A stretch of 64,000 nucleotides of DNA. Source: Polyangiaceae bacterium (GTDB taxonomy: Bacteria > Myxococcota_A > Polyangia > Polyangiales > Polyangiaceae). The DNA lies in assembly GCA_025937895.1 (NCBI GenBank), contig JAICQL010000009.1, positions 6,896 through 70,895 on the forward strand, read 5' to 3'. The number at the start of each line of letters is the position of its first letter. The first letter of the stretch is position 1. Of the stretch, positions 1-49,340 are shown in pieces. The notes beneath the pieces were generated by a model. It saw nothing but the letters and a program-made list of their open reading frames with translations. It made no database searches and had not been told where the DNA came from. Both the position numbers and the translations under genes were made by a program.

Positions 1-994
<994 letters not shown>

Positions 995-1767
995 CGAAGT
1001 CCCGTTTACCTGTGTCATCGGAGCGAGGTCGAAGGCTCGACAAAGTTGGAGGGCGGCACAGACCGCACCCAAGGATACGCCAGTCTGTAGCCAAGCTCCT
1101 TAACCCGCAAGGGCTTTCTGGCTGTGGCGCCGGGACACCGGGCGAGCTGTGTTCCGTGCTCTGATCCGTGTTTTGTACCGATAGCTGGGCGTAGATCTAG
1201 ATCTGAATCTCGGTGCGAAGATTTCGCGTGCGAGCAGCTTTTGAAGCGATATTTCGACGCATGGTTCGACGCACTGGGTAAAGCGTGGCAGGGCGCCGAG
1301 GTGTGGGGCGCCGCATGGGATGCGGATGACCCAGGTAGGGTGCATTTTGCCGCCATTGGCAGGCGTTGAGCGCGCGGGCCCTGACGCGGAACGCAATCGG
1401 ACCGCGAGGTGCCAGTGGCCCTGGATGAAGAGCGGGTGGCTGCGATCATGCTGCTCGCACTCGGTGTGTCCTGATGAGTAGCTCTGGAGAGTCGCATTTC
1501 TCGAGCGCTAACTGAGATCGACGAGCTGGGAAACGCGAGCAGCGCAGCTGCGCCGTGCCCGGATGTGCCCCAGCGAGCTCGCGCCCCGGAGGGACTGGAA
1601 CCGAAGCCCGGCTCTGGGCCTCCAGTACACCGATCTGAAACGCCGCTCTTGCCCTCTCGTCGAGACGACGTTCGCCGAGCGCCGCGGCAATGAATTCTTA
1701 ACGCGGCAGCCACCAGCACAGGCTCGCCTGCGACCGCTCGGGCGCGCTCGCCGTGCACGCCACGCGC

Positions 1768-2448
1768 TCATGGAGTTGCACGGCGATAGGCGGTGGCCAG
1801 CGCGTCTGCATACTCGTTCCAGCGATAACCGTTGTGCGACTTGATCCAGCGTAGCTCGATTTGCGGGTGTGCGCGCGCCAGGCGGTACAGCTCCTGCACC
1901 AGATCCAGGTTCTTGATCGCGCCACTCTTGCGCTTCCAGCCGTTCTTCTCCCAGGTCGCTGCCCAGGAGTTGATGGTGTCCACGCACAGCTGGCTGTCGG
2001 TCAGCACCACCGCCGCCTGCCCCGCTGGCACCAGCTGGTAGCCCGCGATCAGCGCGGTCAGCTCCATCCGGTTGTTGGTGGTCAGCGGCTCCGAGCCGTG
2101 TGCCTGGGCAATGATCTGGTTATCTACGACGTACACCGCGCCCCAGCCACCTGGCCCCGGGTTCGGGTGCGCCGCACCGTCCGTGAAGACGCCGGTGGTC
2201 GGGCCGTCGGTATAGGTGGCCAGGACCTGCTCCAGGGTCATCGACCCCTCGCTGCTCTCGGTCCGCGTTCCCGTGGCCGCCGGGCGAGCGCGAGGAGGTG
2301 TGGCACGCCGAGCGGGTTGGCCGGCCTTGTTCGCTCCCGGAGTGCGGCAGCGGATGCAAGTCTTCGGCTGCCAGGCGGGATATTTGTCCAGCGTGGTCTG
2401 CGGCACGTTGAAGCCGCGACCGCAACGCTGGCACTGGAACGTAGGCAT
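1768..2448 (-). CDS. rnhA: Ribonuclease HI with an N-terminal CxxC...CxxC zinc-ribbon-like extension
   Basis: 226-aa ORF. The C-terminal 150 aa carry RNase H catalytic motifs (FTDGA, NNRMELTA, LTDSQ, NEYADAL). The N-terminus reads MPTFQCQRCGRGF...KTCIRCRTPG, followed by a Pro/Ala/Arg linker. Confidence 0.85.
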   Translation of the reverse strand: MPTFQCQRCGRGFNVPQTTLDKYPAWQPKTCIRCRTPGANKAGQPARRATPPRARPAATGTRTESSEGSMTLEQVLATYTDGPTTGVFTDGAAHPNPGPGGWGAVYVVDNQIIAQAHGSEPLTTNNRMELTALIAGYQLVPAGQAAVVLTDSQLCVDTINSWAATWEKNGWKRKSGAIKNLDLVQELYRLARAHPQIELRWIKSHNGYRWNEYADALATAYRRATP

Positions 2449-3013
2449 GGGCGGCGGATTATTGTCCAGGCCCCGCCCGAAACGCGACCCGAGCCTGCGC
2501 TTTTGACCGCCGGGGTGATGCCGCGGGTGCGGGCGCCCGAGCGCTCGCTTTTCGCGCTCGGAGCTTGCGATAGCTGCTCCAGCCTGGCTCGTGCCCTCCG
2601 TTCACAGTCAACGGAGGACATGATGTCCTCCGCGCCTCGCTGAAGGCGTGATTCTCCAAGGAAGAGGAGGGCCGCGAGCCACGTGGACGAGCACACGCCG
2701 TCCTCGCGGTTTGCGGGAACACACCCGATTTGCACACCCGAGCAAGCTAAAGTCCCGCAGGGGGAGTGAAGGTCACTCGAACTCGGGCCAATCAGCTGAG
2801 TACAGCTGGCGTTCGGCTTTAATCGGGTAGCCGAGCGTGACCGCGGCAGGGGCGCTGGAGCGCCCCCGCCGCGGTCTTGTTTTTTTGTGGCGGTGTTCCA
2901 CCGCAGTCCAAACACAGCGCAAGATCGCGCTCGCATCAGCAGGATCGCTGGCAAAGACGGACCCTGTGCCGGGTCGCCGCCTTGTTCGCCGGGGGCCAAC
3001 CGCGCTATAGCCG

Positions 3014-4285
3014 ATGACCGCTATGCTTCGTTCGCGCGTCCTGGCTGCGAGCCTGCTCAGTCTCGCGTTTCTGGCATTCCAGCAGAGTTGCTCGGCGGGC
3101 GGAAGCTCGTCAGAGGGCGTTGCCGTGACCGGCACCGAGGCAGGGCAAGCGCCCGTGTTGCCACCGCCCACGGGTCAGGGCAGCGGCACCCCCGGCCAGA
3201 ACGGCACGTTCATGCTGGACGACGAGTCGCAGCTGATCGACGAGAACGCGCCGCCACCCAACGTCGGCAGCGAGATGGCTTGCGACGGCATCGACGAGAA
3301 CGGCAACGGGATCATCGATGACGTGGACAAGGGCAGGGACGGCCTGTGCGACTGCCTGAACATCGGCTTCTTCGGCGCGCTCGCCTCCGACAACGGCAAC
3401 TCCACCGGGGCCTTCGAGACGTGGCTGGAGGCGCGCAGTGACGTGCCCGTCACCCACATCGGCGCGCGCGACACCATCACCGCGGACGTGCTGCGGCCGC
3501 TGCAGGTGCTCGTGATCGGCAACCTGCGCGAGCGCGGCAACGCGGGCTTCAGCGCGGCGGAGCTGGAGGCCTTTCGCCAGTGGATCGAGGTCGAGGGTGG
3601 GGGCGTGATGAGCCTGGCGGGCTACACCGCCAATGCCAACGACATGGCACCGACGGTGGCGCTGCTCGCGCCGACGGGCATCAGCTACGACTACCAGGGG
3701 CGCGGCCCCGGTGTGCTGGGGGTGGTGATGAACGGGCCTCCGCCCGTCATCGTCAACGACATCACCGCGCCCGAGCATCCCAGCATGGAGGGCATCAAGG
3801 CGCTCGGTGTCTTCAACGCCTATCCGGTGGTGGGCGACGGTCAGGTAATCGTGCGCTCCGGCGAGTTCAACCTGGCCATGGCCAAGGAGCTGGGCGCGGG
3901 CCACGTGTTTGTCTTCTCCGATGAGTGGATCACGCAGGATGTGCTGTGGTCTCCGATGATGCGCCCGCTCACCCAGTGTCAGCAGAGCTGTAACCAGTGC
4001 GCCAATCAGTGCAGCAACTGCGAGACCAACTGCGCCAACTGCCAGCTGCAGCCCTGCCAGGGTGGCCAGCAGCCGCCGGACGGCGGCACGTGCGCGCGCG
4101 GCTGTGATCAGGCCTGCACGCAGTGCACGAACAATTGCCAGACGTGCGAGGCCGCGTGCGCCGCCTGCAGCGCGCTGGAGCAGGATCAGGAGCTCGACAT
4201 CCCGCGCTTCTGGCTGAACACCTTCCGCTGGCTCACCCCGGCGAACGAGTGTCAGGTGCCGGTGCCCACCACGATCGTCTACTGA
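3014..4285 (+). CDS. Putative lipoprotein with a CDGxDxxGNG metal-binding-like motif, an amidotransferase-like central region and a 16-Cys C-terminal module
   Basis: 423-aa ORF. The signal peptide ends ...AFQQSC (lipobox-like). It contains MACDGIDENGNGIIDDVDKGRDGLCDC. At 3977-4168 there are 16 Cys in 64 aa with alternating x3/x2 spacing. Confidence 0.7.
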   Translation: MTAMLRSRVLAASLLSLAFLAFQQSCSAGGSSSEGVAVTGTEAGQAPVLPPPTGQGSGTPGQNGTFMLDDESQLIDENAPPPNVGSEMACDGIDENGNGIIDDVDKGRDGLCDCLNIGFFGALASDNGNSTGAFETWLEARSDVPVTHIGARDTITADVLRPLQVLVIGNLRERGNAGFSAAELEAFRQWIEVEGGGVMSLAGYTANANDMAPTVALLAPTGISYDYQGRGPGVLGVVMNGPPPVIVNDITAPEHPSMEGIKALGVFNAYPVVGDGQVIVRSGEFNLAMAKELGAGHVFVFSDEWITQDVLWSPMMRPLTQCQQSCNQCANQCSNCETNCANCQLQPCQGGQQPPDGGTCARGCDQACTQCTNNCQTCEAACAACSALEQDQELDIPRFWLNTFRWLTPANECQVPVPTTIVY

Positions 4286-4618
4286 CGCCCTGGTAGCGGG
4301 CAGCACATACGGGGGCTCCAGGAGGGCGGCTCCAGCAGGGACACTCCGGCAGGGACGCAGGCGCACCTTGGGCTACATGCATGCCTGCAGGGCTGCTCGC
4401 CACGCGCTCGGCCTGCGCCAGGTACGTCGGTGAGAGGCGCTCTGCGCCCAGCGCTCACACGCGGGCATGATTTAGCCGCGCACGACGCTGCTTTGCTTGG
4501 CGGACCCCGGTTGCCAGCCTCATGGTTAACTCTGGCGCGCATTGAAACGCCGGGCTGCGCCGTTTGTATTCGTGGGGGACCGCTGCCGTCCGGCAGTCGG
4601 TCGCGCGAGACGAGAGCG

Positions 4619-5836
4619 ATGGCAGCTGATTCGAGCATCGACGAGACGGAAGCGGCAGGCGCTGCGGCAGAGGAGAAGCCCGCTGCCCTGCCCGACAAGC
4701 CCAATGGGCCACCGCGCCCACCGCGCCCCGCGCGGCGGGCCAGCGTGTCGCTGCGCATCCCGTTGCCGTCCGCGGTCATCCCCGGCTCCAAGCTGAGCTC
4801 TTCGCGGGCGGAGCCGCTCGCGGAGCAGCAAGAGGCACCGGCAGCCGCCGGCGCTGCCGAGCCCAGCACAGGTGCAGAGGCGGCAGCGGAGCCCGCGCGC
4901 ACCATGCCCAGCCCCGGCATGCCGCCCCGGCGAGAGCAGCCAGCGGCGCTGCGGCTGGACCCGCAGAACATGCCCACGCCGTTGCCGGAGCGGCCCTCGC
5001 CACCACCGGCTCCGCTCACGCCCCGGGTAAACGCGGGCGACGCCAGCAACATCGAGTTCAGCCTCACCCGCCGCTCGAGCGGCGCCCCGCCGCTCAGCTT
5101 CGACAGCGAAGACGTGGACCCCTCGGATCGAGCTCCCGTCGCGCCGCTCACCCCCTGGCATGACGTGCCGCCGCTGCAAGAAGCGGCCGACCAGGCCAGC
5201 CCGGCGGTGGCAGCTGCGGCCGACAACGATCACGAAGACACCATCGTGGGGCAAGTGCCGCAGGATCTGCTCGAGCTGGCCAGCGAGAACGAGGAAGAGA
5301 ACACGCGCGCTTACCAGGCTCCGCAGGAGCTGATCGACCTGGCCCGGCGCAAGCGCGAAGAGCGGCGCCAGGCGCGCGGCCTGGCAGCGCGCGGGCAAGA
5401 CGCGAAGGGCAGATTCGCCGACTCGCTGCCGCCCGCCGCGCGCGCCGTGGCGGAGCTCGACGAGGACCAGCGCGAGGTGGCCACCGCCACGGTGCCGCTC
5501 GACACTTTGCCTCCGGGCGACGCGGCGCCGCCCGTGGCTCGCTCCAGCGCAGTGCGCGGGGGTGCCCTGCGCGACGAGCAGAGCCTGGAGCGCCAGGTGA
5601 GCAACGCGCCCGCCTCGCTGGAGGAGCTGGTCGCCGCCGTGTCGAGACCTGGCGAGCGCGAGTCGATCGCGGTCACCAGCCAGGTACTGAGCGAGGATCG
5701 CACCCCGGACTCGCTGCCCGACTTTGCTCGCGGCTCCACTCGCGCGCGCGGCTGGCTGCTGCTGGTCGGGCTGGTGCTGCTGCTCGGCTTCGTGCTGGCT
5801 CGCTGGGGCGGCATGGAGCTGCCGCTCTCGCGCTGA
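4619..5836 (+). CDS. Pro/Ala-rich protein with a C-terminal transmembrane anchor (hypothetical)
   Basis: This is the internal ATG (M64) of ORF 4430..5836. GC3 is high throughout. The C-terminus GWLLLVGLVLLLGFVLARW is hydrophobic. No recognisable domain. Confidence 0.55.
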   Translation: MAADSSIDETEAAGAAAEEKPAALPDKPNGPPRPPRPARRASVSLRIPLPSAVIPGSKLSSSRAEPLAEQQEAPAAAGAAEPSTGAEAAAEPARTMPSPGMPPRREQPAALRLDPQNMPTPLPERPSPPPAPLTPRVNAGDASNIEFSLTRRSSGAPPLSFDSEDVDPSDRAPVAPLTPWHDVPPLQEAADQASPAVAAAADNDHEDTIVGQVPQDLLELASENEEENTRAYQAPQELIDLARRKREERRQARGLAARGQDAKGRFADSLPPAARAVAELDEDQREVATATVPLDTLPPGDAAPPVARSSAVRGGALRDEQSLERQVSNAPASLEELVAAVSRPGERESIAVTSQVLSEDRTPDSLPDFARGSTRARGWLLLVGLVLLLGFVLARWGGMELPLSR

Positions 5837-6037
5837 AGCTGGCGCTCGCCCGGCGCTGGCCCTGGCGCGCCGCCGGCACCACCCTGCGGTCGCAGTACGC
5901 AGACCGCGCGCCATCGCGAAAGTCAGCCGCGCGGAGTGCGGGCACACGGGTTGCACATGGCCTCCCCAACGTCAGCGCTCGTGGCCAAGCCGCGGGCCTG
6001 CCCATGCAAAGACCGCCAGGTCATCGGGGAGAAGCCA

Positions 6038-7108
<1,071 letters not shown>

Positions 7109-7271
7109 GCTCCGCCGTGCGCTGCCGGAGGTCCACTTGCCTGCTCTCGGGCAGGTGGCTCTCCGGCGGTCACCCGCCGGCCGGCAACGCGCCTGGCACG
7201 GGAAGCAGCGTTTTCAGATGGTCGAGGTGCGAGACAAGGAGCGGTGCTGCGTCTTGGGAGAAGGTGATCCG

Positions 7272-7583: not shown

Positions 7584-7628
7584 GCCGCCTCAGGTCTTTG
7601 ACTCCGCTTCACGCCGCCTCACGCCGCT

Positions 7629-8876
7629 TCACGCGGCCGTGCGGCTCGTCCGCGGAGCGCTGGCGAGCCGCTCCAGCACCGTGGCCGCAGCGGCCACCGC
7701 GTCCGTCTCCCGAATCTGGCGCGACAGCTCCGCCAGGGTGCGCCGCGTCTCCAGGCTATCCAGCAAGCGCCGAGCCTGCTTGGCCAGCACATCGCCGGCC
7801 AGGCTCCGGCGCGCCACCACGGCTCCCGCCCCGAGCAGGGTGATGCGATGGCCGTTGTCGGGCTGATCAAACGCCTGCGGGCTGATGATCTGGGGGATGC
7901 CGGCCTCCAGCGCGCGCGCAGTGGTGCCGATGCCGCCGTGGTGCACGAGCAGCGCGGCGTGGGGCAAGAGCCGCTCCAACTCCAGGTATGGCTCGTGGAG
8001 CAGCGCTCCGCCAGCCGGGATGGTGCTGGGGTCAAAACACGGGCTCAGGAAGATGCCGGGCTTCTGCAGCAGCTTGCAGCAGCTGCGAGCGGCGTCGAAA
8101 AACTGCCGCACGTCTGCCACCCCGGTGCCCGGCGTGAACACCAGTGGCGCTCCGCGCTGGCGGATGAACTGCGCCACCCGCTCCGGCAGCTCTCCGCGCG
8201 GGGGCGTCAGCGGAAAGCCCACGCAGTCCAGCGACGCGGGCCAGTCCGACGCGCGCGGGCAGTACCACTCGGGAAACAGGCACAGCTGGTGAGTGACGAG
8301 GCCCTCGAGCACGCGCCAGCTGCCGTTCAGCGGCTGCAGCCCCAGCGTGCTGCGAAACTCGTTCATGCGGCGCAAAATGTACGGGTGCGTGTAGCGGCGC
8401 TCCAGCACTCCCGGCAAGACATGACGGCGGACGTATTTGCCCAGCCAGCCCTTCACCGCCTCGCTCAGCGGATAATACGGCGCCTCCAGTGAGCTGATGC
8501 GGAACGGCGCGAGGGTGAAGCGGACCAGAGGTAGGCCGTGGCGCTCCGCCATCAGGGTGGAGGCGGCGTAGCTCTCCGGGTTGACCAGCACCAGCTCCGT
8601 ACCGCGCGCGAGCTCTCGCTCGATGAAGTCGAACGTGGGCTGGTAGGAGGGGAACACGATGTTGCCGAAGTTCTCCTCCACCTCGACCAGGTTGTTGGTC
8701 TGGGCGGGCGCAATGGCGGTGAAAGGAACGCCCAGCTGCCGCGCCAGGCTCGCGGCGGGAGCGTTGCCCAGCACGTGACAGCTGTGGCCGCGCGCCTGCA
8801 GCTCGGAGGCCATGGCCAGCATCGGCAGCAGATCTCCACGAGTGCCGGTACCACTGAAGACGAACTTGGTGCCCAT
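7629..8876 (-). CDS. GT1-family (UDP-glycosyltransferase/MGT-like) glycosyltransferase
   Basis: 415 aa. The N-terminus reads FSGTGTRGDLLPMLAMASELQARGH. The C-terminal nucleotide-sugar signature is HHGGIGTTARALEAGIPQIISPQAFDQPDNG. Confidence 0.85.
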   Translation of the reverse strand: MGTKFVFSGTGTRGDLLPMLAMASELQARGHSCHVLGNAPAASLARQLGVPFTAIAPAQTNNLVEVEENFGNIVFPSYQPTFDFIERELARGTELVLVNPESYAASTLMAERHGLPLVRFTLAPFRISSLEAPYYPLSEAVKGWLGKYVRRHVLPGVLERRYTHPYILRRMNEFRSTLGLQPLNGSWRVLEGLVTHQLCLFPEWYCPRASDWPASLDCVGFPLTPPRGELPERVAQFIRQRGAPLVFTPGTGVADVRQFFDAARSCCKLLQKPGIFLSPCFDPSTIPAGGALLHEPYLELERLLPHAALLVHHGGIGTTARALEAGIPQIISPQAFDQPDNGHRITLLGAGAVVARRSLAGDVLAKQARRLLDSLETRRTLAELSRQIRETDAVAAAATVLERLASAPRTSRTAA

Positions 8877-13156: not shown

Positions 13157-13448
13157 CGCCGGGCGCACCGGCAGCTCGCCAGCGGCGTACCCGCTGGCGG
13201 CGCACCACTGGCGGCATTTCGTATCTTCAGTACGCAACCACTCGTCACGAGCGGACGACACGGGGGGAGGCGAGGGGGGCGGCTTCGTGGCGAAGGCCTC
13301 GGAGCGGTGCTGGGCATGCTCTGCGGTGCAGAAAGCTGGAGAGCGCTGGCCTCCCAGGCGAGGGCACGCCATGCCCAGGGGGGCGGCAGGCGTTGAGCTT
13401 TGGCTGGCAGCAGCGGCGGTATCGCTGAACCCTCAACGATCCCGCCAG

Positions 13449-13531
13449 TAGCCCCTGCCGGGGTCGAACCGGCACGCCTGTTAGGGCGAGGGATTTTAAA
13501 TCCCCTGCGTCTGCCATTCCGCCAAGGGGCC
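13449..13531 (-). tRNA. tRNA-Leu, anticodon UAA
   Basis: The minus strand reads GGCCCCUUGGCGGAAUGGCAGACGCAGGGGAUUUAAAAUCCCUCGCCCUAACAGGCGUGCCGGUUCGACCCCGGCAGGGGCUA. It has an anticodon loop UUUAAAA, a long variable arm, a GUUCGAC T-loop and an A73 discriminator. CCA is not encoded. It closely resembles E. coli tRNA-Leu(UAA). Confidence 0.85.
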
Positions 13532-15302: not shown

Positions 15303-15377
15303 TGGAGGCGAGGACCGGATTCGAACCGGCGTATGGCGGTTTTGCAAACCGCTGCCTAACCACTTGGCTACCTCGCC
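15303..15377 (-). tRNA. tRNA-Cys, anticodon GCA
   Basis: The minus strand reads GGCGAGGUAGCCAAGUGGUUAGGCAGCGGUUUGCAAAACCGCCAUACGCCGGUUCGAAUCCGGUCCUCGCCUCCA. It folds as a cloverleaf, has a GCA anticodon, and encodes CCA. Confidence 0.9.
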
Positions 15378-36887: not shown

Positions 36888-38444
36888 TCAGCGGCAGCTG
36901 AGGGTCGTCGCCCACAGCTCGTAGCCGCTCGCGCGCTGCACCAGGAACAGTGACAGCACGCCTTCGTCGACGGTGAGCGCGCTGCCGCCGCCCGCGCTGG
37001 CGCCGGCGGGAGAGAGCGTGCTGGGCTCACCGAGCGCGGCAAAGCCGGCGTCCAGGGTCACCCCGCGCACTTGCCGCAGACCCTGCTCGCCCTCCGTCCA
37101 CTGCAAGAACCAGCGCGCGCCGGGCAGCGCGGTGAGGCTGGGCGCAAAGCTCTCGTGACCGGGAGCCGCCACGACCGGCAGCTCCAGCCGCCGGCTGCGC
37201 CCCTGCCGCGTGCTGCTGGCGAGCTCGATGTGCCAGGGCTGGTGCGAGCTCTCGCGCACGGCTGCTGCCACGAGCGCCACGTCGCCTCGCGTGGCCAGGC
37301 TTGGCAAGCCGAGCTCGCCGCCGCTGAAAGGCAGCTCGCGCAGTGCCGAGCGCTCGCCGCGTTCGGGCTGCAGCCAGCCCAGCACCAGCTTGCCCTGGCG
37401 CCCGCCTCGCCGCACCACCAGCGCCAGCTGTCCGGCGTCTTGCCACTCCAGGCGCGCGCGGCTGAGCTCTTCATCGGCGGCGAGCGGCCAGAGCGCGTGC
37501 TCGCGCTGGCTGCCGCGCTCGATCAGGTGCAGCGCGCGATTGGTGCGCGCCAGCGCCAGCTCCGGGCGATCCGGCAAGGTGCGCCATTCGCGGAAGCCGC
37601 CGACCGTGGCGCGATCGACGACGAAGCTGGAGCTCGTGCTGGGCTGTGGCACCACGCCGAGCAGTTCGCGAGCGCCGCTGTCTCGCAGCAGCTCGGTGCT
37701 GGCCAGGGTGGTGGCGTTGAGGCGGACGCCGAGCGCGGTGCCGTTGCTGGTGGCAAGCCCGACCAGCACTTCCACCCCACCCGGCAGCGGGCGCGCCTCG
37801 AGCCCGAACGTGGAGGAGACACCGCGCAGCAACTGGACGGGCTCGCGCTGGCGCGCACAGGGCTCGCGCAGGGCAACGGGCGCCGCCGGTGCTGCCACGG
37901 GCGCAGCGACAGGCGCGCGCCGGCGAGCGGGCGGCGGCTCGGCGCGCTCTGCACCGCGCACCAGCAGCGCGACCAGCACCGCGGCACCAAAGCCCAGCAG
38001 TGCGGAGCTCAGCGCGAGCAATCCCCAGCGCTGGCGCAGCAGCTCACCCGCGCCGCTCAGCTCGCGCAGCCAGTCGGACAGCGCCGGCTCGGCGCGCGGA
38101 GCCCCGGCCTTGCGCTGTGCTCGAGCGGGATCAGCCTTGCTGCCAGGGGGCGCCGCGACGTCGCTCGCCGCAGCCAGTGCGGGCGCAGGGTCGGGGGGGA
38201 CGGCGGGCTCCAGCGGAGGCAGGGGCACGGTTGCGCGAGCAGCCGCGGGGGGCGGAGCGGGTCGGGGCGGTGGCGGCTCCAGGCCCTCGATGCGCGTGGC
38301 CTGGAACTGGCGCCCTTGCTCGGCGGGCGGCTGTCGGGGCTTGGTCGGTGGCGCGAGCGGCGACACCTCCGGAGGCATGGACGTGCCGTCTGGATCGACT
38401 CGCACCTGGTCGAGGGGAAACCCCAGCAACTTCTGCAGATCCAT
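36888..38444 (-). CDS. Hypothetical single-pass membrane protein (Pro-rich cytoplasmic N-terminus, large extracytoplasmic domain)
   Basis: 518 aa. TM segment: WGLLALSSALLGFGAAVLVALLV. GC3 is high. Confidence 0.6.
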   Translation of the reverse strand: MDLQKLLGFPLDQVRVDPDGTSMPPEVSPLAPPTKPRQPPAEQGRQFQATRIEGLEPPPPRPAPPPAAARATVPLPPLEPAVPPDPAPALAAASDVAAPPGSKADPARAQRKAGAPRAEPALSDWLRELSGAGELLRQRWGLLALSSALLGFGAAVLVALLVRGAERAEPPPARRRAPVAAPVAAPAAPVALREPCARQREPVQLLRGVSSTFGLEARPLPGGVEVLVGLATSNGTALGVRLNATTLASTELLRDSGARELLGVVPQPSTSSSFVVDRATVGGFREWRTLPDRPELALARTNRALHLIERGSQREHALWPLAADEELSRARLEWQDAGQLALVVRRGGRQGKLVLGWLQPERGERSALRELPFSGGELGLPSLATRGDVALVAAAVRESSHQPWHIELASSTRQGRSRRLELPVVAAPGHESFAPSLTALPGARWFLQWTEGEQGLRQVRGVTLDAGFAALGEPSTLSPAGASAGGGSALTVDEGVLSLFLVQRASGYELWATTLSCR

Positions 38445-38611
38445 CCCTGTCCCCGAGCCCCAGAACGGCTGCTGGAGGCCGACACAAAGTCGACACGACC
38501 CGATCCGGAACGCTGCCTGACGAGGAGCCGTGCAACAGCCGTTGCTCTGGCCGGAAGCGCTGTCTTTTTACCGTGCTGACCCGCGCTGTTGGAGCCGTTC
38601 AGAAGGTCGAC

Positions 38612-40018
38612 ATGTCGAGTGCTCCGCGCTGGCACATCCACGGTCTGCTCTGCGCTCTCGCGCTGCTGGTGAGCACCGCGCTGGTGCAGGCGGCGCCGGC
38701 CGCAACGGGGGCAACGCCGCCGGGCGCCAAGGTCAGCGAGGGCCAGCTGCTGGCAGAGGACAAGGCGTTCGTGGCAGGGCCCGAGGGCGCCACGTTGCTG
38801 CTCGTGGAGGGCGCGCGCCTACAGCTCGAGCCGGGCACGAGGCTGCGCTTCGGGCGCACCTTCAAGCTGCCCATGGGGCCCGGCGCAGACTCTGCCATCC
38901 CCACGCGGGTGCTGATGCTGGAGGCGGGCTGGATGGGGGCGACGTTGACCGCCGAGAAGTTCGCGCTGTTCGTGGAGACGCCGCGCAAGCTGCGCTCTCT
39001 GCTGCTGGGCGGTGAGATGACGGCCATCGCGCGCGAGGTGCGCTCGACGGTGGCGGCCGCCACCGGCAAGGTGCTGGTCGCGCTGGACGACGGCTGGAAG
39101 TGGAAGCGCCTGGGCGAGGGCTCGATGCAGATCGTGAGCGACGTGCGCCCGGACGGCTACCGGCGCTCGGTCTTGCCGGCGAGCGCGCCGCCCGTGCTGT
39201 CGAGGAGCTTGATGCTGTCGGGTGCGGGCGCGGACTCCTCCACGATCCTGGCCTGGCCGGCGCTGCCGGGCGCCGTGGGCTACGAGGTGCAGCTGCGTTC
39301 GGGAGACAGCCTGGTGCGCAGCGAGCGCACGAAGGAGCCGCGCTCGACGGTGGCGGAGCTGGCGCCGGGCCAATATCAGGTGCTGGTGCGAGGCGTGGAT
39401 GACTCCGGCATTTTTGGCTCGCTCTCGGCGCCTGCGGCACTGAACGTGGTCGGGCTGGAGGTGCCGAAGACCGCGAGCCGCAGCTCGACGGGTGCCGTTC
39501 GCCTGCAGGCGAACCAGCGGGTCACGCTGATCGGCGCGGAGGGCCTGGAGGTGGCGTACCTCGGCCTGGATGAGTTCTTGCCCGCGCCGAAGAGCGTGGG
39601 GCTGGTGGCGCGACGACCCATCTCGCTCGTGCTGCGGCACCCGGAGAGCGGCGAGACGGTGCGGCTCGATCTGGAGCCGCTGACCGTGCGCGCGCAGGTG
39701 CAGTTTGCGCGGCATCCGCACAGCTGGCCGCAGGACGGCCTGGAGATCGCCGTGAAGCTCAGCGACGAGCAGGGCGATCGGGTGCCCGAGAACTTCGCGG
39801 TGACGTGCAAGGTGACCGTCAACATCCAGCCGGTGGAGCCCAGCTGGGAGCGCAGCGGCTCCGTGCTGCGCACTCGTCTGGCGCGCCCGCCGGGAGCGGG
39901 GCCCTGGATGGTCCGGGTGGACGTGCTGGACGAGAACGGCGCCTCGCTGGGCATGGACTTCTCCGAGGTCGGCTACGAGGCGGCCAGCGCGCGCGCGCAC
40001 ATGCCCGCGCGGCGCTGA
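38612..40018 (+). CDS. Secreted hypothetical protein
   Basis: This is an internal ATG of ORF 37889..40018. The signal peptide is MSSAPRWHIHGLLCALALLVSTALVQA. It has an Ig/FN3-like stretch (ILAWPALPGAVGYEVQLRSGD...). Confidence 0.6.
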   Translation: MSSAPRWHIHGLLCALALLVSTALVQAAPAATGATPPGAKVSEGQLLAEDKAFVAGPEGATLLLVEGARLQLEPGTRLRFGRTFKLPMGPGADSAIPTRVLMLEAGWMGATLTAEKFALFVETPRKLRSLLLGGEMTAIAREVRSTVAAATGKVLVALDDGWKWKRLGEGSMQIVSDVRPDGYRRSVLPASAPPVLSRSLMLSGAGADSSTILAWPALPGAVGYEVQLRSGDSLVRSERTKEPRSTVAELAPGQYQVLVRGVDDSGIFGSLSAPAALNVVGLEVPKTASRSSTGAVRLQANQRVTLIGAEGLEVAYLGLDEFLPAPKSVGLVARRPISLVLRHPESGETVRLDLEPLTVRAQVQFARHPHSWPQDGLEIAVKLSDEQGDRVPENFAVTCKVTVNIQPVEPSWERSGSVLRTRLARPPGAGPWMVRVDVLDENGASLGMDFSEVGYEAASARAHMPARR

Positions 40019-40116: not shown

Positions 40117-40812
40117 ATGTCGGCGAAGGGTCGGATTCTGAGGCTGCTGAGCAAGCTGGTGCTCGCCGAGGCGGAGCTGGTGTCGGTGCGCGTGCTGGCC
40201 AGCAACCTGTGGCTGCTCGAGCTCCAGGCGGCGAGTGGCTCGGGCGGTAGCTGGCAGCCCGGAGACAAGCTGCAGGTGCTGCTGCCGGACGATGAGGTGC
40301 GCACCTTCACTCCGCTCAGCTGGGGCCCGGACGGGGCCAGCGCCTTGCTCGTGTACGGACATGGGGACGGCCCGGTGTCGCGCTGGGCGCCGCTGCTCGA
40401 GGCAGGGCAGCGGCTGCGCTTCGTCGGCCCGCAGCGCTCGCTGGTGATGCCCGATGGCGCGCTCACCTTGTTCGGCGACGAGACGTCGCTGGCCGTTGCC
40501 GCGAGCTACGCGCGGGCGCGGCCCGGCGCCGTGCGCGCCGTGTTCGAGGTTGCAGCGGGGCTCTCGCTCGAGGGAGCGCTCGCCGCCATCGGCCTTGCTC
40601 GAGCTCAGGTGGTGTATCGCGAGCCCGGAGCGCCGCGCGGCCTCGCTCTGGAGAGGGCGCTGGAAACAGCCCTGGGCGAGGTGCGTGGCGCCGTGGGCAT
40701 CACCGGCGGCTCCGAGCTGATCCAGCGCGTGCGGGCCCGGCTACGTGAGCGCGGGCCGCTCGACATCAAGACGAAGACATACTGGGTGCCGGGGCGAGCC
40801 GGCCTCGATTGA
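40117..40812 (+). CDS. Siderophore-interacting/ferredoxin-reductase-type FAD-binding protein-like
   Basis: 231 aa: ...GDKLQVLLPDDEVRTFTP...RLRFVGPQRS...LFGDETSLAV... The assignment is by pattern only. Confidence 0.55.
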   Translation: MSAKGRILRLLSKLVLAEAELVSVRVLASNLWLLELQAASGSGGSWQPGDKLQVLLPDDEVRTFTPLSWGPDGASALLVYGHGDGPVSRWAPLLEAGQRLRFVGPQRSLVMPDGALTLFGDETSLAVAASYARARPGAVRAVFEVAAGLSLEGALAAIGLARAQVVYREPGAPRGLALERALETALGEVRGAVGITGGSELIQRVRARLRERGPLDIKTKTYWVPGRAGLD

Positions 40813-43877: not shown

Positions 43878-45007
43878 GTCGACTCATCCGGGGCACGGGG
43901 CGGGAGCGAGGAGACCTGGATGTTGGGGTTGCTCTTGCTGCCGTCGCCCGTCTTGACGGCAGCCTTGCGCAGCGGCTTGGTGGGAGCAGGGGCCGGCGCG
44001 CCGTCAGGCCCCACTGCGGGTGGAATGCCAGAGGGCATGGCCGCCGGCATGCCGGAGGGGATGCCCGAGGGGATCGTGGCGCGAATCCGCACCGAGCCTG
44101 GCGCCTCGCTGGGTGTGGGCTCTTTCGCCGCGGCGCGCTCCAGCCCGGCGCGCCGCCGCAGCAACTGGGAGGGCAACATCGACCACAGGCGCTCCCCTGC
44201 GCCGGGCCGCTTGGTGGCCTTCTTCGGCGAGAAGATGCCCTCCAGCGCGGCGCGCAGGCGCGGGCCGTCCAGGTCCGAGACGATGTTGCCGTTGAAGCAG
44301 AAGCTGACCGAGCCGCGCTCCTCGCTGACCACGACCAGCACCGCGTCCGTCTCCTCGGTGATGCCGAGCGCGGCGCGGTGGCGCGAGCCGAAGCTCTCGT
44401 CGATCACCCGGCCCTGTGTGAAGGGGAAGAACACGCCGGCCTTGGCGATGCGCAGGTCGCGGATGATCACCGCGCCGTCGTGCAGCTTGTTCATGGCCTC
44501 GGGGACGAACAGCGAGACCAGGAGCTGGCTGGAGACGGCGCCGTCGATCTCCGTGCCCTTGTGGGAGCCCACGAACTCATCCAGGTTGGCGTCCTGCTCG
44601 AAGGCGATGATCGCGCCGATGCGGTGGCGCGCCAGCTCCGTCGCGGCGGCGATCACCTCGTCGATGACCCGCTGCTCCTGGTAGCGGCCGGTGCCGATCA
44701 GCGCGCCGCTGCCCATGCGCATCAGACCGCGGCGAATGTCTTCCTGGAAGACGACCACGATGATCAAGATCGCGCTCGGCAGCACCGTGCCCAGGATCGT
44801 GAACAGCGTGCCCAGCTCGAAGTACTTGGACACGCCGTACAGCACGAGCAAAAATGCCAGGCCCAGCCCGATCTGCACGGCGCGCGTGCCGCGCAGCACC
44901 AGCGAGACGCGGTAGATGAGGTAGTAGGTGATGAGCAGATCGGCGGCGTCGCGCAGCAGCTCGGTCAAGGCGCGCTGCAGGACGTGGCTGAAGAGCTCCT
45001 CCATCAT
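43874..45007 (-). CDS. cdaA: Diadenylate cyclase CdaA (DisA_N domain) with a long Pro/Gly/Met-rich C-terminal tail
   Basis: 3 TM segments, then ...HRIGAIIAFEQD...DGAVII...GSRHRAALGITEETDAVLVVVSEERGSVS. The tail reads ...IPSGIPSGMPAAMPSGIPPAVGPDGAPAPAP... Confidence 0.9.
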   Translation of the reverse strand: MMEELFSHVLQRALTELLRDAADLLITYYLIYRVSLVLRGTRAVQIGLGLAFLLVLYGVSKYFELGTLFTILGTVLPSAILIIVVVFQEDIRRGLMRMGSGALIGTGRYQEQRVIDEVIAAATELARHRIGAIIAFEQDANLDEFVGSHKGTEIDGAVSSQLLVSLFVPEAMNKLHDGAVIIRDLRIAKAGVFFPFTQGRVIDESFGSRHRAALGITEETDAVLVVVSEERGSVSFCFNGNIVSDLDGPRLRAALEGIFSPKKATKRPGAGERLWSMLPSQLLRRRAGLERAAAKEPTPSEAPGSVRIRATIPSGIPSGMPAAMPSGIPPAVGPDGAPAPAPTKPLRKAAVKTGDGSKSNPNIQVSSLPPRAPDEST

Positions 45008-45927
45008 GTGGCGCGGGCCTCGGGCGCAGAGGGACCCAGGAGCGTGCTCACCGGCGCCGTGCCGTGCTGCTGCGCGCGCGGCAACTGGCTGGCCAGCGCC
45101 GCCTCGACCAGCAGCGCCTGGCGTACGGCGGCCACGTCATGGACGCGCAGCACGTGCGCGCCGCGGCGCGACGCCCAGACCGAGGCAGCGATGGTGCCGC
45201 CCAGGCGATCGGCGGCGGCGCTGCCATCGAGCGCGCGGATGAAGGACTTGCGGCCTGCGCCCACTACCAGCGGCGTGCCTCCGGCACCCAGCTCTGCCAC
45301 CCGCGCCAGCAGCTCGATCGAGTGCCGCGCGTTCTTGGAGAAGCCGATGCCCGGATCGAACCAGACCTGGGCGTGAGCCACGCCGCGCGACACCGCCAGC
45401 GCGCGCGCCGCCCCCAGCTCCCTCCGCACGTCGCCCACCACATCCGCGTAGGCGTCGTCTGGCCACTCCGAGAAGCCCGTCATCTCACTCTGATGCGCCC
45501 GGGCGTGCGAAACGATCAACGTCGCGCCGTATCGGGCCACCACCGTGGCCAGCTCCGGATCCGAGAGGCAGGTGACGTCATTGATGATGCTTGCGCCATG
45601 CTGCAGCGCAAAATCCGCCACCGCCGGGCTCGCGGTGTCGACCGAGATCAGCGCCCCGCGCTCCACCGCGCAGGCCAGCGCCGTACGGATGCGCTCGATC
45701 TGAGTCGGCGCGTCCACGCGAGGCGCGCCGGGCTTGGACGACTCACCGCCGATATCGAGGATATCAGCGCCTTCTGCCAGCAGTCGGCCGACATGCTCCC
45801 GCGCCGCGTCCGTGGACTCGTAGCGCCCGCCGTCGTAAAACGAGTCGGGCGTCACGTTGACGATGCCCATGAGCGCAGCGGTTCGCTGTCGTGCCACCTG
45901 CTCGATGAGGTCGTGCACGCGAGCCAC
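45004..45927 (-). CDS. folP: Dihydropteroate synthase
   Basis: GIVNVTPDSFYDGG...DIGGESSKPGA... Its stop overlaps the cdaA start. Confidence 0.9.
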   Translation of the reverse strand: MARVHDLIEQVARQRTAALMGIVNVTPDSFYDGGRYESTDAAREHVGRLLAEGADILDIGGESSKPGAPRVDAPTQIERIRTALACAVERGALISVDTASPAVADFALQHGASIINDVTCLSDPELATVVARYGATLIVSHARAHQSEMTGFSEWPDDAYADVVGDVRRELGAARALAVSRGVAHAQVWFDPGIGFSKNARHSIELLARVAELGAGGTPLVVGAGRKSFIRALDGSAAADRLGGTIAASVWASRRGAHVLRVHDVAAVRQALLVEAALASQLPRAQQHGTAPVSTLLGPSAPEARAT

Positions 45928-46070
45928 TTCAAAATTTCCCTAGCAAGAGTTCGGCCCACGGGCAAGGCACGCGGGCGTGAAGTGCGGGCTGGCCGCGCAG
46001 GCTGGCGCGAGGAATTCTCGCCAGGCCACCCTCCATCAGCGCCGGGCGGGACGAGCCCCGACGGCCGTGC

Positions 46071-46940
46071 TCAGGCGCCGGACGCCAGCCCCGGCTCCGT
46101 CCCCGGCACGACATCCACGATCCAACCATTCTTGGCCCACGCCTGGAACCAGCTCGCGACATTCTGCTGCAATCGTTCGGCGTGTTCGGGGTGGAGCTGA
46201 AGCGCATGTTCACACGCGCTCACCAGAGAAGTACGGCGCGAGAGCGCAGAAAGTAGCGCGAAGGCCTCGGGGCTCACCGGTCGGTGGTAGAGCCTGCGAT
46301 CCGCTGCGCGATACAGCACGAGCTGCTGCGCCTGGGGCGCAGGCAGCTCAACACCCGGACCGGCGCCGCCATTCCTGCGCGACTCGAGCAGCTGCCGCCG
46401 CAGATCGGCGACGGGATAGCTGACCTCCAGCAGGCGCAGCGCGGGATTGAGGAGGATTTGCCCCGATTCGAGCAGCTCGGGCCGCTGTGCGGCGAGCTTG
46501 GCGAGATCCAGGGGCGGGCAGTCGGCCGCGTCAAAGAGCTCGATGAACGCCCACTCCAGTCGGGCCATGTCGCTGCACAGGCGCTGGTGGGGGAGGTCGG
46601 TACAGCCCGCGATGTATTCGGGGAAGCTGCGGCCCAGCTCGCGCAGGGTCCAGCTCGTGGGCGTGTGCGCCTGCAGGTAGCCCTCCATCAGGCGTTCCCA
46701 GTCGCTCTGGCCCAGGATGCCGCCGACCCCCGGAAAATCCTCCACCAGCGACGCGGTGTGGCGCAGCCAGAATTGCTCGCGATAGATCTCCAGCTGCTCC
46801 ACGGGCAGCAGGCGATCATTGCCCGTGAGTCGGTCGGCTGCCTCTGCGCTGAGGGTGGGATCGCGCGGCAGCGCACGCAGCGCCTGCAGGTTACGAGCCA
46901 CCCAGTGTTGCAGTGTGCTCAGCTCGCTCTGGTACGTCAC
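46071..46940 (-). CDS. DUF2063-family protein (HvfC/BufC-like RiPP maturation partner)
   Basis: 289 aa: ...LPVEQLEIYREQFWLRHTASLVEDFPGVGGILGQSDWERLMEGYLQAHTP... Its ATG overlaps the stop of the upstream DUF692 gene. Confidence 0.8.
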   Translation of the reverse strand: MTYQSELSTLQHWVARNLQALRALPRDPTLSAEAADRLTGNDRLLPVEQLEIYREQFWLRHTASLVEDFPGVGGILGQSDWERLMEGYLQAHTPTSWTLRELGRSFPEYIAGCTDLPHQRLCSDMARLEWAFIELFDAADCPPLDLAKLAAQRPELLESGQILLNPALRLLEVSYPVADLRRQLLESRRNGGAGPGVELPAPQAQQLVLYRAADRRLYHRPVSPEAFALLSALSRRTSLVSACEHALQLHPEHAERLQQNVASWFQAWAKNGWIVDVVPGTEPGLASGA

Positions 46941-47905
46941 TCTGCTACCGCCGCTCCCAGGCTGCTGCTCTCCCGTGCCGCCAGCTCGCGCGGGCCGCCA
47001 TGGCTGGCAGAATGTGCCGCCTGGCGCTCGCCCGCCGCCGCGGAGCGCGCCGGCAATGGCGCGGGCACGCGGCCGAGCGCCACGTCGCGCGCGTGACGGG
47101 CTTTTTCAGCCTCGGCGGCCAGCACGGGCCACTCGGGGATCTCGTCGTCCCACTCGATCAAGGTGGAGACGGAGCCCGTGTAGCGGATGGTCTCTGCGTA
47201 CAGCGCCCACACCGCGTCCACCACATGGCCGCGGTGCGTGTCGATGATGTACTTGCCGACGTTGGTGTGCCCGGCGAGATGGATCTGCACGATGCGCTCG
47301 TGCGGTATGGAGCGGATGAACTCGTGCGGATCGAAGCCGTGGTTGTAGGCGGACACGTACACGTTGTTCACGTCGAACATCAGCCCGATGTTCGCACGCT
47401 CCGCCACCTCGGAGATGAACTGCCACTCGCTCATCTGGCTGCAGCTGTAGGTCATGTAGCTGGAGGTATTTTCCAGCGCGAACGGGACCTCCAGGTAGTC
47501 CTGCACGCGGCGCGCCCGCTCCGCCACGCGCTCCACCGCCTCCCACGTATAGGGCAGTGGCAGCAGATCGTGCAGGTGTGCGCCCGGCACCCCGCACCAG
47601 CAGAAGTGATCGCTGAGCCAGGCCGGCTGGACCCGCCGCACCAGTTGCTTGAGCCGCGCCAGGTAAGCCGGGTCCGGCTCTTCCGGGCCGCCGATGCTGA
47701 GCGAGACGCCGTGCTGGATGAGCGGATAGTGCTGCTGCACCTGCTCCAGGTGGTGCACTGGCTTGCCCCCATCGACCATGAAGTTTTCGCTGATGATCTC
47801 GAAGAAATCCATGGCGGGGCGCTGGCTGAGGATGTGCCGGTAGTGCGGCACGCGCAGGCCCACGCCGATCCCGAGATCCGGGACACCGAGCCGGGGTTGG
47901 GTCAC
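46937..47905 (-). CDS. DUF692 / MNIO-family (MbnB/BufB-like multinuclear non-heme iron oxidase)
   Basis: GTG 47905 is preceded by AGTGAGG: VTQPRLGVPDLGIGVGLRVPHYRHIL...FFEIISENFM...HGVSLSIG...LSDHFCW...ALENTSSYM...QIHLAGH... The longer track ORF (to 48289) is antisense to pepP. Confidence 0.85.
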   Translation of the reverse strand: MTQPRLGVPDLGIGVGLRVPHYRHILSQRPAMDFFEIISENFMVDGGKPVHHLEQVQQHYPLIQHGVSLSIGGPEEPDPAYLARLKQLVRRVQPAWLSDHFCWCGVPGAHLHDLLPLPYTWEAVERVAERARRVQDYLEVPFALENTSSYMTYSCSQMSEWQFISEVAERANIGLMFDVNNVYVSAYNHGFDPHEFIRSIPHERIVQIHLAGHTNVGKYIIDTHRGHVVDAVWALYAETIRYTGSVSTLIEWDDEIPEWPVLAAEAEKARHARDVALGRVPAPLPARSAAAGERQAAHSASHGGPRELAARESSSLGAAVAE

Positions 47906-47960
47906 AGCCTCACTATCCCAGATTGTGTGGCAAATTGTGGTCGTGAATTCACCGGAGCCC

Positions 47961-49340
47961 ATGCCTGGCCGCTGGCCCACGAGCACCCCTGGCCCCGCGC
48001 TGGCGGCGCGGCGGCGGCGCTTGCGCGAGCAACTGCAAGGCCCCGCGCTGCTCGCCGCGGGCTGGCCGCGGCCGCGGAATTTCCCCCACAATTGCCACCC
48101 GTTTCGCGCGGAGAGCCACTTTCTGTACCTGGTGGGCAGGCAGCTGCCGGGCGCGGCGCTGTGGCTCGAGCCCGGCGCCGAGCGGCTGTATGCACCGCCG
48201 CCCGAGCCCGAGGCGCGCCTGTGGCACGGACCCGAGCCGAGCCTGGCGGAGCTGGAGGCCGAGCTGGGCCTGGAGGTGAGGCCGATCACGGAGCTGCCCC
48301 GCGCCGAGACGGCGGCGACGTTGCCGCCTCAGGACCCGACCGCTGCCGAGTGGCTGTCAGGGCAGCTCGGGCGCGTGGTGAAGGCGTCAGCGCTGCCCAG
48401 CGAGAGCGCTGACGTGGCGCTGGCCGAAGCGCTCATCGCGCTGCGCCTCATTCATGATGACGCGGCGCTCGCGCAGCTTCGACAGGCCGCGCTGGTGACC
48501 TGTGACGCTCACCGGGCGGGGTTGCGCGCCACTCGACCCGGGCTGCGCGAGGCACAGGTGCGAGCCCAGATGGAGGCCACCATCGTGGGAGCGGGCATGA
48601 CGCTCGCGTATTGGCCGATCGTGACCGCCGACGGCCACATCCTGCACGCGCAGCGGCACGACGGTGTGCTCGCGCCCGGTGACCTGTTGCTGGCAGACGT
48701 GGGCGCGGAGACGCCCGAGGGCTGGGCCGCCGACGTGACCCGCACCTGGCCCGTGTCGGGGCGCTTCAGCCCGACGCAGCGCGCTGCGTACCAGGCTGTG
48801 CACACGGCGCAGGCGGCGGCGCTCGCGGCAGTGCGCCCAGGTGCTCGCTACACGGACGTGCACCGCGCCTCACAGCGCGCGCTGCTCCAGTGCCTGCTCG
48901 ATCTGAAGCTGCTGCGCGGCTCGCTGGAGGAGCTGCTCGTCTGTCACGCGGTGGCGCTCTTCTATCCGCACGGGGTCGGCCACCTCCTGGGGCTCGACGT
49001 GCACGACATGGAGGATCTCGGCGACCGCGCCGGCTACGCCCCGGGCCGTGCCCGGCAGCAGAACCCGAGCGCCCGCTATCTGCGGCTCGATCGCGAGCTG
49101 CAACCCGGCATGGTCGTGACCATCGAGCCCGGCTTCTACCAGCTGCCCGAGCTGCTCGCGGCGATCGAGCCCGGCAGCGCGCTCGATCGCGCTCTCGATC
49201 GCGAGCAGCTCGCGCGCTTCGCCGACGTGAAGGGCATCCGCATCGAGGATGACGTGCTGGTCACCGATGCCGGCCACGAGATCCTGACCGCCGCGCTCCC
49301 GAGCGAGGTGGATGCGGTGGAGAGCGCGATGAGGGGCTGA
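47961..49340 (+). CDS. pepP: Xaa-Pro aminopeptidase (M24B)
   Basis: GGAG lies upstream of ATG 47961. N-domain: NCHPFRAESHFLYLVG. Catalytic residues: ...LLADVGAE...HGVGHLLGLDVHD...TIEPG...IRIEDDV. Confidence 0.85.
   Translation: MPGRWPTSTPGPALAARRRRLREQLQGPALLAAGWPRPRNFPHNCHPFRAESHFLYLVGRQLPGAALWLEPGAERLYAPPPEPEARLWHGPEPSLAELEAELGLEVRPITELPRAETAATLPPQDPTAAEWLSGQLGRVVKASALPSESADVALAEALIALRLIHDDAALAQLRQAALVTCDAHRAGLRATRPGLREAQVRAQMEATIVGAGMTLAYWPIVTADGHILHAQRHDGVLAPGDLLLADVGAETPEGWAADVTRTWPVSGRFSPTQRAAYQAVHTAQAAALAAVRPGARYTDVHRASQRALLQCLLDLKLLRGSLEELLVCHAVALFYPHGVGHLLGLDVHDMEDLGDRAGYAPGRARQQNPSARYLRLDRELQPGMVVTIEPGFYQLPELLAAIEPGSALDRALDREQLARFADVKGIRIEDDVLVTDAGHEILTAALPSEVDAVESAMRG

Follow-up and report, generated by a model that had tools for sequence, protein, structure and literature searches.

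A bufBC-type maturase gene pair maintained apart from a precursor gene in a clade of soil Polyangiaceae

Bufferin-type maturases pair a multinuclear iron oxidase (MNIO, formerly DUF692) with a DUF2063-containing partner protein, and their genes are expected next to that of a small precursor. We analysed such a pair in a stretch of Polyangiaceae bacterium DNA (GenBank assembly GCA_025937895.1, contig JAICQL010000009.1, positions 6,896 to 70,895; hereafter the window, 64 kb in length, with a G+C content of 69%). On the minus strand lie a bufB-like gene for an MNIO oxidase (46937..47905; 322 amino acids, GTG start) and a bufC-like gene for its partner (46071..46940; 289 amino acids, GTG start), the latter predicted to combine a DUF2063 amino-terminal domain with an NGO1945_C/RRE-type carboxy-terminal domain. 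A 55-bp spacer (47906..47960) divides the pair from the divergent gene pepP and marks the site at which relatives carry the precursor gene. The locus is best described as an organisational variant of a known system, namely an orphan, selectively maintained bufBC in a soil Polyangiaceae clade.

Both family assignments made in the initial annotation, DUF692 and DUF2063, were borne out by profile matches. The oxidase matched Pfam PF05114 (MbnB_TglH_ChrH, formerly DUF692) at 360.2 bits (cut-off 25; E = 7.7 × 10−108) over profile positions 1–261 of 263 and, among the NCBIfam families, exceeded the curated cut-off of the equivalog NF050167 (MNIO_BufB; 352.4 bits against 310). The next-best family, HvfB, stayed below its own cut-off (257.7 bits against 360), and MbnB (49 bits against 325), ApyH and ChrH fell far under theirs. 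Relatives in the PDB comprise 3BWW, TglH and MbnB, with whose motifs those of the oxidase align; all 55 of the 55 near-invariant family columns are present, and H65, H100, E145, D178, N180, H209, D222, H224 and E251 are at least 96% invariant among 49 homologs. This set of His, Asp, Glu and Asn residues we take, from the assignment made for MbnB, to be the iron ligands expected of the TIM barrel. The partner exceeded the cut-off of PF09836 (DUF2063; 55.2 bits against 27.2), with a weak match to PF22106 (NGO1945_C) over residues 165–269 that fell just under the cut-off (24.8 bits against 27), and its length fits the approximately 250–290 amino acids of PME-type 1 partners (DUF2063 plus an RRE-type domain; BufC/HvfC/NGO1945-like). 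It reached 63 bits against the HvfC equivalog NF050145 (cut-off 142) and had no sequence match in the PDB. By enzyme membership, as far as such profiles define it, the pair is BufB/PME-type 1, and neither HvfBC nor MbnBC.

As in bufABC[D] clusters, the oxidase gene is directly followed by the DUF2063 gene. Their overlap has the 4 nt originally reported, but it reads GTGA rather than ATGA, with the GTG start of the partner overlapping the oxidase stop, and the two genes are translationally coupled in B-then-C order. The annotated GTG start of the oxidase is supported by an amino terminus (MTxPRLGVPDLGIGVGLRVPHYR) that is conserved in relatives, which also argues that a 450-amino-acid in-frame upstream extension of the reading frame is not real; the extension lies antisense to the conserved amino terminus of pepP and is missing from the amino termini of homologs, in agreement with the earlier view that it is not a fused precursor. 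The divergent pepP gene (47961..49340, plus strand) encodes an Xaa-Pro aminopeptidase of family M24 (PF05195 and PF00557), and homologs that align from residues 1–5 place its ATG at 47961, so that the upstream gap of about 55 bp given by the initial annotation holds. On the other side, a spacer of 143 bp (45928..46070, minus strand) leads to folP (dihydropteroate synthase; 45004..45927, minus strand; TIGR01496, 260.9 bits), identified before as the next gene and here confirmed; folP is the first gene of a folP–cdaA–ybbR operon in which cdaA and ybbR have Pfam matches and the genes overlap by 4 nt.

A precursor gene immediately upstream of the oxidase gene, the remaining hallmark of bufABC[D] organisation, is absent from the 55-bp spacer, and no precursor-like open reading frame (ORF) was found anywhere in the window by tblastn with the precursors of relatives, by a six-frame search with a profile hidden Markov model of the Cys core or by motif regular expressions. 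A screen of the window for ORFs combining a signal peptide, at least four Cys residues and a high G+C content at third codon positions (GC3) returned only noise, and no EGKCG-type ORF was noticed in these window screens, although no dedicated search for that motif was made. The initial claim that no precursor gene adjoins the pair thus stands, and the gene cluster is without the adjacent-precursor feature that defines bufferin biosynthetic gene clusters. DoxX (bufD), a frequent and non-essential component, does not occur among the annotated genes at 37.9–61.6 kb of the window, nor at the precursor-bearing Polyangiaceae loci inspected. Within the same part of the window, two high-GC3 ORFs on the plus strand (37889–40018, 709 amino acids; and 40117–40812, 231 amino acids) are without a Pfam match.

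The oxidase has thousands of homologs; the closest, with identities of up to 91%, belong to metagenomes and to metagenome-assembled genomes (MAGs) of Polyangiaceae. For comparison, 49 loci were taken from a scan of species-representative genomes and further loci were added by look-up (individual loci are numbered L001 and upwards), with sequence read across all 64 kb of the window and over ±6–10 kb around the loci of relatives. The arrangement in which pepP diverges from an MNIO–DUF2063 pair is conserved across the Polyangiaceae, and pepP is the common divergent neighbour of loci with and without a precursor; folP–cdaA–ybbR often comes next, either directly or after about 4 kb with an acyl-CoA dehydrogenase and a 7TM-HD protein. 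In approximately 20 of the 49 loci, mostly Polyangiaceae with pepP as neighbour, the oxidase gene is directly preceded by a small gene. At pepP-syntenic Polyangiaceae loci this gene sits between pepP and the oxidase gene and encodes 80–100 amino acids, with a lipobox signal peptide (for example, LLLGTIVAC/GG) and a Cys-rich core, AKACCKGMNECKGKGSCKTDANECAGKNECKGQGGCNAHCPK, of consensus CCKGxNxCKGxGxC...CAGxNxCKGxGGCNxHCPK, in which most Cys positions are invariant or nearly so. Its sole NCBIfam match is a weak one to BufA2 (E = 6 × 10−10; 39 bits against a cut-off of 60), and a profile of the Polyangiaceae precursor finds 4,558 proteins. The precursor-bearing syntenic homologs are approximately 60–75% identical to the window, and distant loci (Planctomycetota and other Myxococcota) have repeated or DUF2282-type precursors. 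Because syntenic Polyangiaceae and distant loci both carry a precursor upstream of the oxidase gene, the ancestral locus is, on this comparison, a canonical bufA–bufB–bufC cluster of the bufferin type without DoxX; and since the precursor of the syntenic relatives is BufA2-like, the window locus would be an ordinary bufABC-type cluster minus bufA and not a new kind of cluster.

Several other relatives differ in their small Cys-containing genes. In Planctomycetota, L039 (2689–3261), L040 and L041 have upstream ORFs for longer precursors, with two to four CAGxNxCKGLGGC repeats and helical-looking linkers. Beside a distant MNIO (45% identity), L045 has tandem lipoproteins of 191 and 128 amino acids (7624–8589, minus strand) that end in HSHCGGxNxCxGMSYD...TEHTCKGLNTCAGYSC and may be another precursor type. 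At L013, approximately 4.3 kb (about 600–4920) is inserted between pepP and the oxidase gene, with no precursor match in the insert, and an ORF for a Cys-rich lipoprotein of 149 amino acids lies downstream of the partner gene (6730–7179).

The window groups with L050/L051, L001–L004 and L007 (bootstrap support of 159/200 for the oxidase alone, 191/200 without L007 and 199/200 for oxidase and partner together), and eight further members (L059, L060, L066, L073, L074, L084, L091 and L096) came from a metagenome scan with an element of the spacer, GAATTCMCNNNCACMWTTTGCC. The precursor profile had no match, and no trace of a former precursor gene was detected, in any of the 16 loci of this window clade, in which the nearest relatives of the window share 75–91% identity with it; where pepP is the upstream gene, the oxidase gene lies 44–79 bp from it. 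Precursor-less loci extend beyond the clade: 29 of the 49 loci, including other Polyangiaceae clades, were without a match to the precursor profile (one of them, L038, has a divergent three-Cys lipoprotein ORF upstream), and among 25 precursor-less loci no precursor remnant better than E ~1 was found upstream of the oxidase gene. We infer that bufA was lost from the window locus long ago, since outgroups and many syntenic loci have bufA and bufABC is the general order (PMC12452194). A nesting of the window clade within precursor-bearing loci, as sister to L008/L011, was rejected with only 35/200 bootstraps (oxidase alone), and in the concatenated tree 100/200 replicates instead join it to another precursor-less clade; relations among the precursor-less clades are unstable, and we make no claim on the timing or number of losses.

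Both enzyme genes are intact in every member of the window clade. Pairwise ratios of non-synonymous to synonymous substitution rates (dN/dS) within the clade were 0.09–0.30 for the oxidase (median 0.15) and 0.15–0.33 for the partner (median 0.21), at dS values of 0.4–1.4, and the true ratios are probably lower, as the Nei–Gojobori (NG86) method tends to underestimate dS at a GC3 of approximately 0.9. The RRE-like carboxy-terminal domain of the partner, the expected peptide recogniser, had a median dN/dS of 0.155. Among columns conserved in at least 90% of 16 precursor-bearing orthologs, 127 of 132 are unchanged in the oxidases of the window clade, the only fixed differences from these orthologs being L151M and R268K, both conservative; the partner keeps 45 of 54 such columns, and four clade-specific substitutions (L106F, Y132F, W157L and A160G) are fixed in it. 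Ratios of 0.09–0.33 at a dS of about 1 indicate that constraint persisted long after the loss. As judged from these substitution patterns, the locus is not a decaying remnant, and the pair is kept under purifying selection. This bears on the suggestion, made at the outset as a counter-argument, that close homologs might have an adjacent precursor that had simply been lost here: homologs at approximately 60–75% identity do carry one, but simple loss on the way to decay does not fit, with the nearest relatives also precursor-less and the enzymes constrained. At L104, apparent enzyme decay was set aside as probable long-read frameshift error, with pepP, MNIO and DUF2063 genes all split (2447–6112); similar splits occur in the oxidase and partner genes of L049 (5989–7821).

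The 55-bp spacer contains a clade-specific element (47928–47952) composed of a perfect 10-bp palindrome, GTGAATTCAC, at 47943–47952 and of CCACAATTTGCCA at 47928–47940 on the minus strand, followed by TAGTGA 4 nt before the GTG of the oxidase gene. The element occurs once in the window and recurs in the window-clade loci examined, although L001, L003, L007, L050 and L066 carry one or two substitutions or only part of it; it is kept at L050/L051 and L066, where the upstream gene is not pepP. At all other loci, the strings searched for were absent from the corresponding position. In other precursor-less clades, TAGTAT or TATATT stands 6–8 nt before the oxidase start, whereas a clear GGAG Shine–Dalgarno sequence precedes several of the precursor genes that were examined, a difference which suggests that the oxidase gene came to head its own transcript, possibly a leaderless one. 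The element itself could serve as an operator or as a promoter of the leaderless type; a sigma-70 consensus scan of the spacers yielded no promoter, and scans for Rfam families and tRNAs gave no match near the locus. Elsewhere, a tRNA-Leu(TAA) (13448–13531) and a tRNA-Cys(GCA) (15303–15377), both on the minus strand, are the sole Rfam/ARAGORN matches in the window. As a possible regulon tag for a relocated precursor, GAATTCMCNNNCACMWTTTGCC gave 46 matches in the metagenome scan: 8 were the further window-clade loci, all precursor-less, and the others inspected, on seven higher-GC contigs, resembled chance; at none of those inspected did a precursor gene come after the motif. Before folP, only about 40 nt (45928–45967) of the 143-bp spacer are conserved across seven window-clade loci, in a promoter-like arrangement (TTGCCC-N17-TAGGGA-N8-GTG); because the rest of the spacer is not conserved, this suggests that folP–cdaA–ybbR has its own, possibly leaderless, promoter, with no read-through from the oxidase–partner pair.

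In line with one reading of the initial annotation, we consider it moderately probable that the pair still works as a maturase of the bufferin type, acting on a bufferin-like precursor whose gene lies elsewhere in the genome, outside the 64-kb window. An ancestral locus with pepP divergent from bufA–bufB–bufC would have lost bufA, leaving a functional BufB-like multinuclear iron oxidase and BufC-like DUF2063/RRE partner that would be transcribed from their own short clade-specific upstream element; the two would still convert precursor Cys residues to copper-binding 5-thiooxazoles, by extrapolation from Caulobacter, on a bufferin-like substrate supplied in trans from another locus. In Caulobacter, the oxidase and its partner turn Cys residues of Buf1, a Sec-exported, Cys-rich small protein, into copper-binding 5-thiooxazoles, with BufB and BufC necessary and sufficient for thiooxazole formation and DoxX dispensable (PMC11626156). 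Many bufferin precursor genes stand alone, and modification of their products by MNIOs encoded at other loci has been proposed (PMC12452194). Two of the loci examined, together with these stand-alone precursors, are counted here as support for action in trans. At the first (L052; ERZ25039500 contig_6700, 5001–5261), pepP and an intact BufA2-like lipoprotein precursor gene are followed directly by an acyl-CoA dehydrogenase gene, with no MNIO or DUF2063 gene within 5 kb; L103 is its intact A–B–C counterpart. The second is in a MAG that holds both a precursor-less orthologous pair (L006) and another MNIO locus with its own precursor (L043), where a paralogous MNIO gene (5953–6861), a downstream ORF of 277 amino acids (the partner) and a convergent, minus-strand gene for a DUF2282/BufA-type precursor (7709–8008) stand in non-canonical order.

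Several observations weigh against such an arrangement. Neither the window genome nor any window-clade genome yielded a trans precursor, within the 64 kb of the former and the ±6 kb around the loci of relatives. All eight family precursors whose context was examined are at the syntenic pepP site, and seven of the eight lie beside their own enzymes, so that dispersed copies of this precursor type in the Polyangiaceae would be hypothetical. The chemistry and the link to copper would hold here only so far as the extrapolation from Caulobacter holds, and the four fixed partner substitutions could reflect a changed substrate.

Possible, though doubtful, is that after the loss of bufA the pair was kept for a different substrate, such as a larger protein or an unrelated peptide, or for a role tied to pepP or to folP–cdaA–ybbR. 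In favour of this, the pair has stayed under purifying selection without an adjacent precursor, the new clade-specific element replaces both the precursor gene and its Shine–Dalgarno leader, and the fixed partner changes, W157L and Y132F included, fall in the protein of substrate recognition; moreover, the literature allows for proteins as MNIO substrates and describes some MNIO clusters in which no precursor can be recognised (PMC12452194). However, the catalytic subunit is almost unchanged from that of precursor-bearing relatives, as its two conservative differences attest, the same pepP/folP synteny occurs at precursor-bearing loci, so that these neighbours do not set orphan pairs apart, and the surroundings of the locus hold no conserved candidate for another substrate. 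A broader proposal, which we offer tentatively and regard as unlikely, is that a large and old Polyangiaceae lineage keeps BufB/BufC as a dedicated trans maturase with a new regulatory element, perhaps re-targeted to a non-bufferin protein; this lineage would take in no fewer than the 16 loci of the window clade, and perhaps the majority of the 29 species representatives without a precursor.

It is very improbable that the two genes are non-functional remains of a bufferin cluster in the course of being lost. Erosion is seen in other lineages, with L052 lacking the enzymes and many Polyangiaceae loci lacking the precursor, and neither DoxX nor copper-related genes lie nearby; yet the reading frames are intact in 16 of the 16 clade members, the dN/dS values are those of constrained genes, all invariant catalytic residues are kept and the conserved upstream element is present.

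The 143-bp downstream spacer, which the initial annotation had described as holding no plausible small ORF, does contain small ORFs (for example, 45940–46029, 29 amino acids, GTG start, three Cys), but none is conserved: in alignments and six-frame translations of seven window-clade loci they were rejected as precursors, having no conserved counterpart even in L050, at 89% enzyme identity, and the corresponding spacer of L004 is only 54 bp long. Most improbable of all is therefore a cryptic precursor in or near the locus, as a short or overlapping ORF in either spacer or antisense to pepP: although the downstream and convergent precursor of L043 indicates that position can vary, 55 bp is too short for a precursor with a signal peptide, the downstream ORFs are unconserved, the antisense extension is absent from homologs and the six-frame profile search was empty in the window and within ±6 kb of the clade loci.

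Among known systems, the closest in kind is bufferin 2 (BUF_6/12Cys; bufA2–bufB2–bufC2(–doxX), in Caulobacter vibrioides and many other bacteria). The window locus resembles it in having an oxidase above the BufB cut-off, a full-length DUF2063 partner with a predicted RRE-type domain and coupled bufB–bufC genes, and in that related Polyangiaceae carry an upstream, Sec/lipoprotein Cys-rich precursor with repeated CxGxNxCKGxGxC motifs; lipoproteins reportedly make up approximately 16% of Buf2 precursors, and the bufABC order has been described as strictly conserved (PMC11626156, PMC12452194). The window locus departs from bufferin 2 in that it has no adjacent bufA, a lack shared by 15 close relatives, and no DoxX. 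The precursors of Polyangiaceae relatives have eight Cys residues, with CC at the start and HC at the terminus, and fall short of the BufA2 cut-off. The stand-alone bufferin precursors of Legionella pneumophila subsp. fraseri (PMC12452194) share the uncoupling of precursor and maturase, for which modification in trans is proposed; those published cases are precursors without enzymes, unlike the window, which has enzymes without a precursor, and L052 is the reciprocal state. HvfABC/oxazolin (Buf_EGKCG) of Haemophilus influenzae (PMC11252979) is similar in that an MNIO and a DUF2063 partner act on a Cys-containing exported protein, but the window pair, under the cut-offs for both HvfB and HvfC, is not a member. 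With methanobactin (MbnA/MbnB/MbnC) the oxidase shares the MNIO fold family and a conserved metal-ligand pattern; it differs in its low MbnB score, in a partner that is DUF2063 and not MbnC, and in the type of precursor. For the prochlorosins, a single maturase, ProcM, of an enzyme family unrelated to MNIO, serves precursors encoded elsewhere in the genome. The proposed trans model is alike in this respect, and unlike in that dispersed precursors in the window organism are hypothetical.

Whichever of these readings applies, the enzymes, the likely chemistry and the ancestral precursor are of a known kind. Mining of MNIO/DUF2063 clusters currently seeks a precursor directly upstream, and the orphan pair is a caveat for such neighbourhood-based approaches. 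If the lineage-wide reading, of action in trans or re-targeting, is true, cluster mining systematically overlooks what a sizeable share of MNIOs act on. If these genomes contain no bufferin-like precursor, a new class of MNIO substrate would be indicated. If instead the pair acts in trans, the linkage of precursor and enzymes would not be obligatory in this family, and the locus would provide a natural test case for substrate recognition by bufferin maturases.

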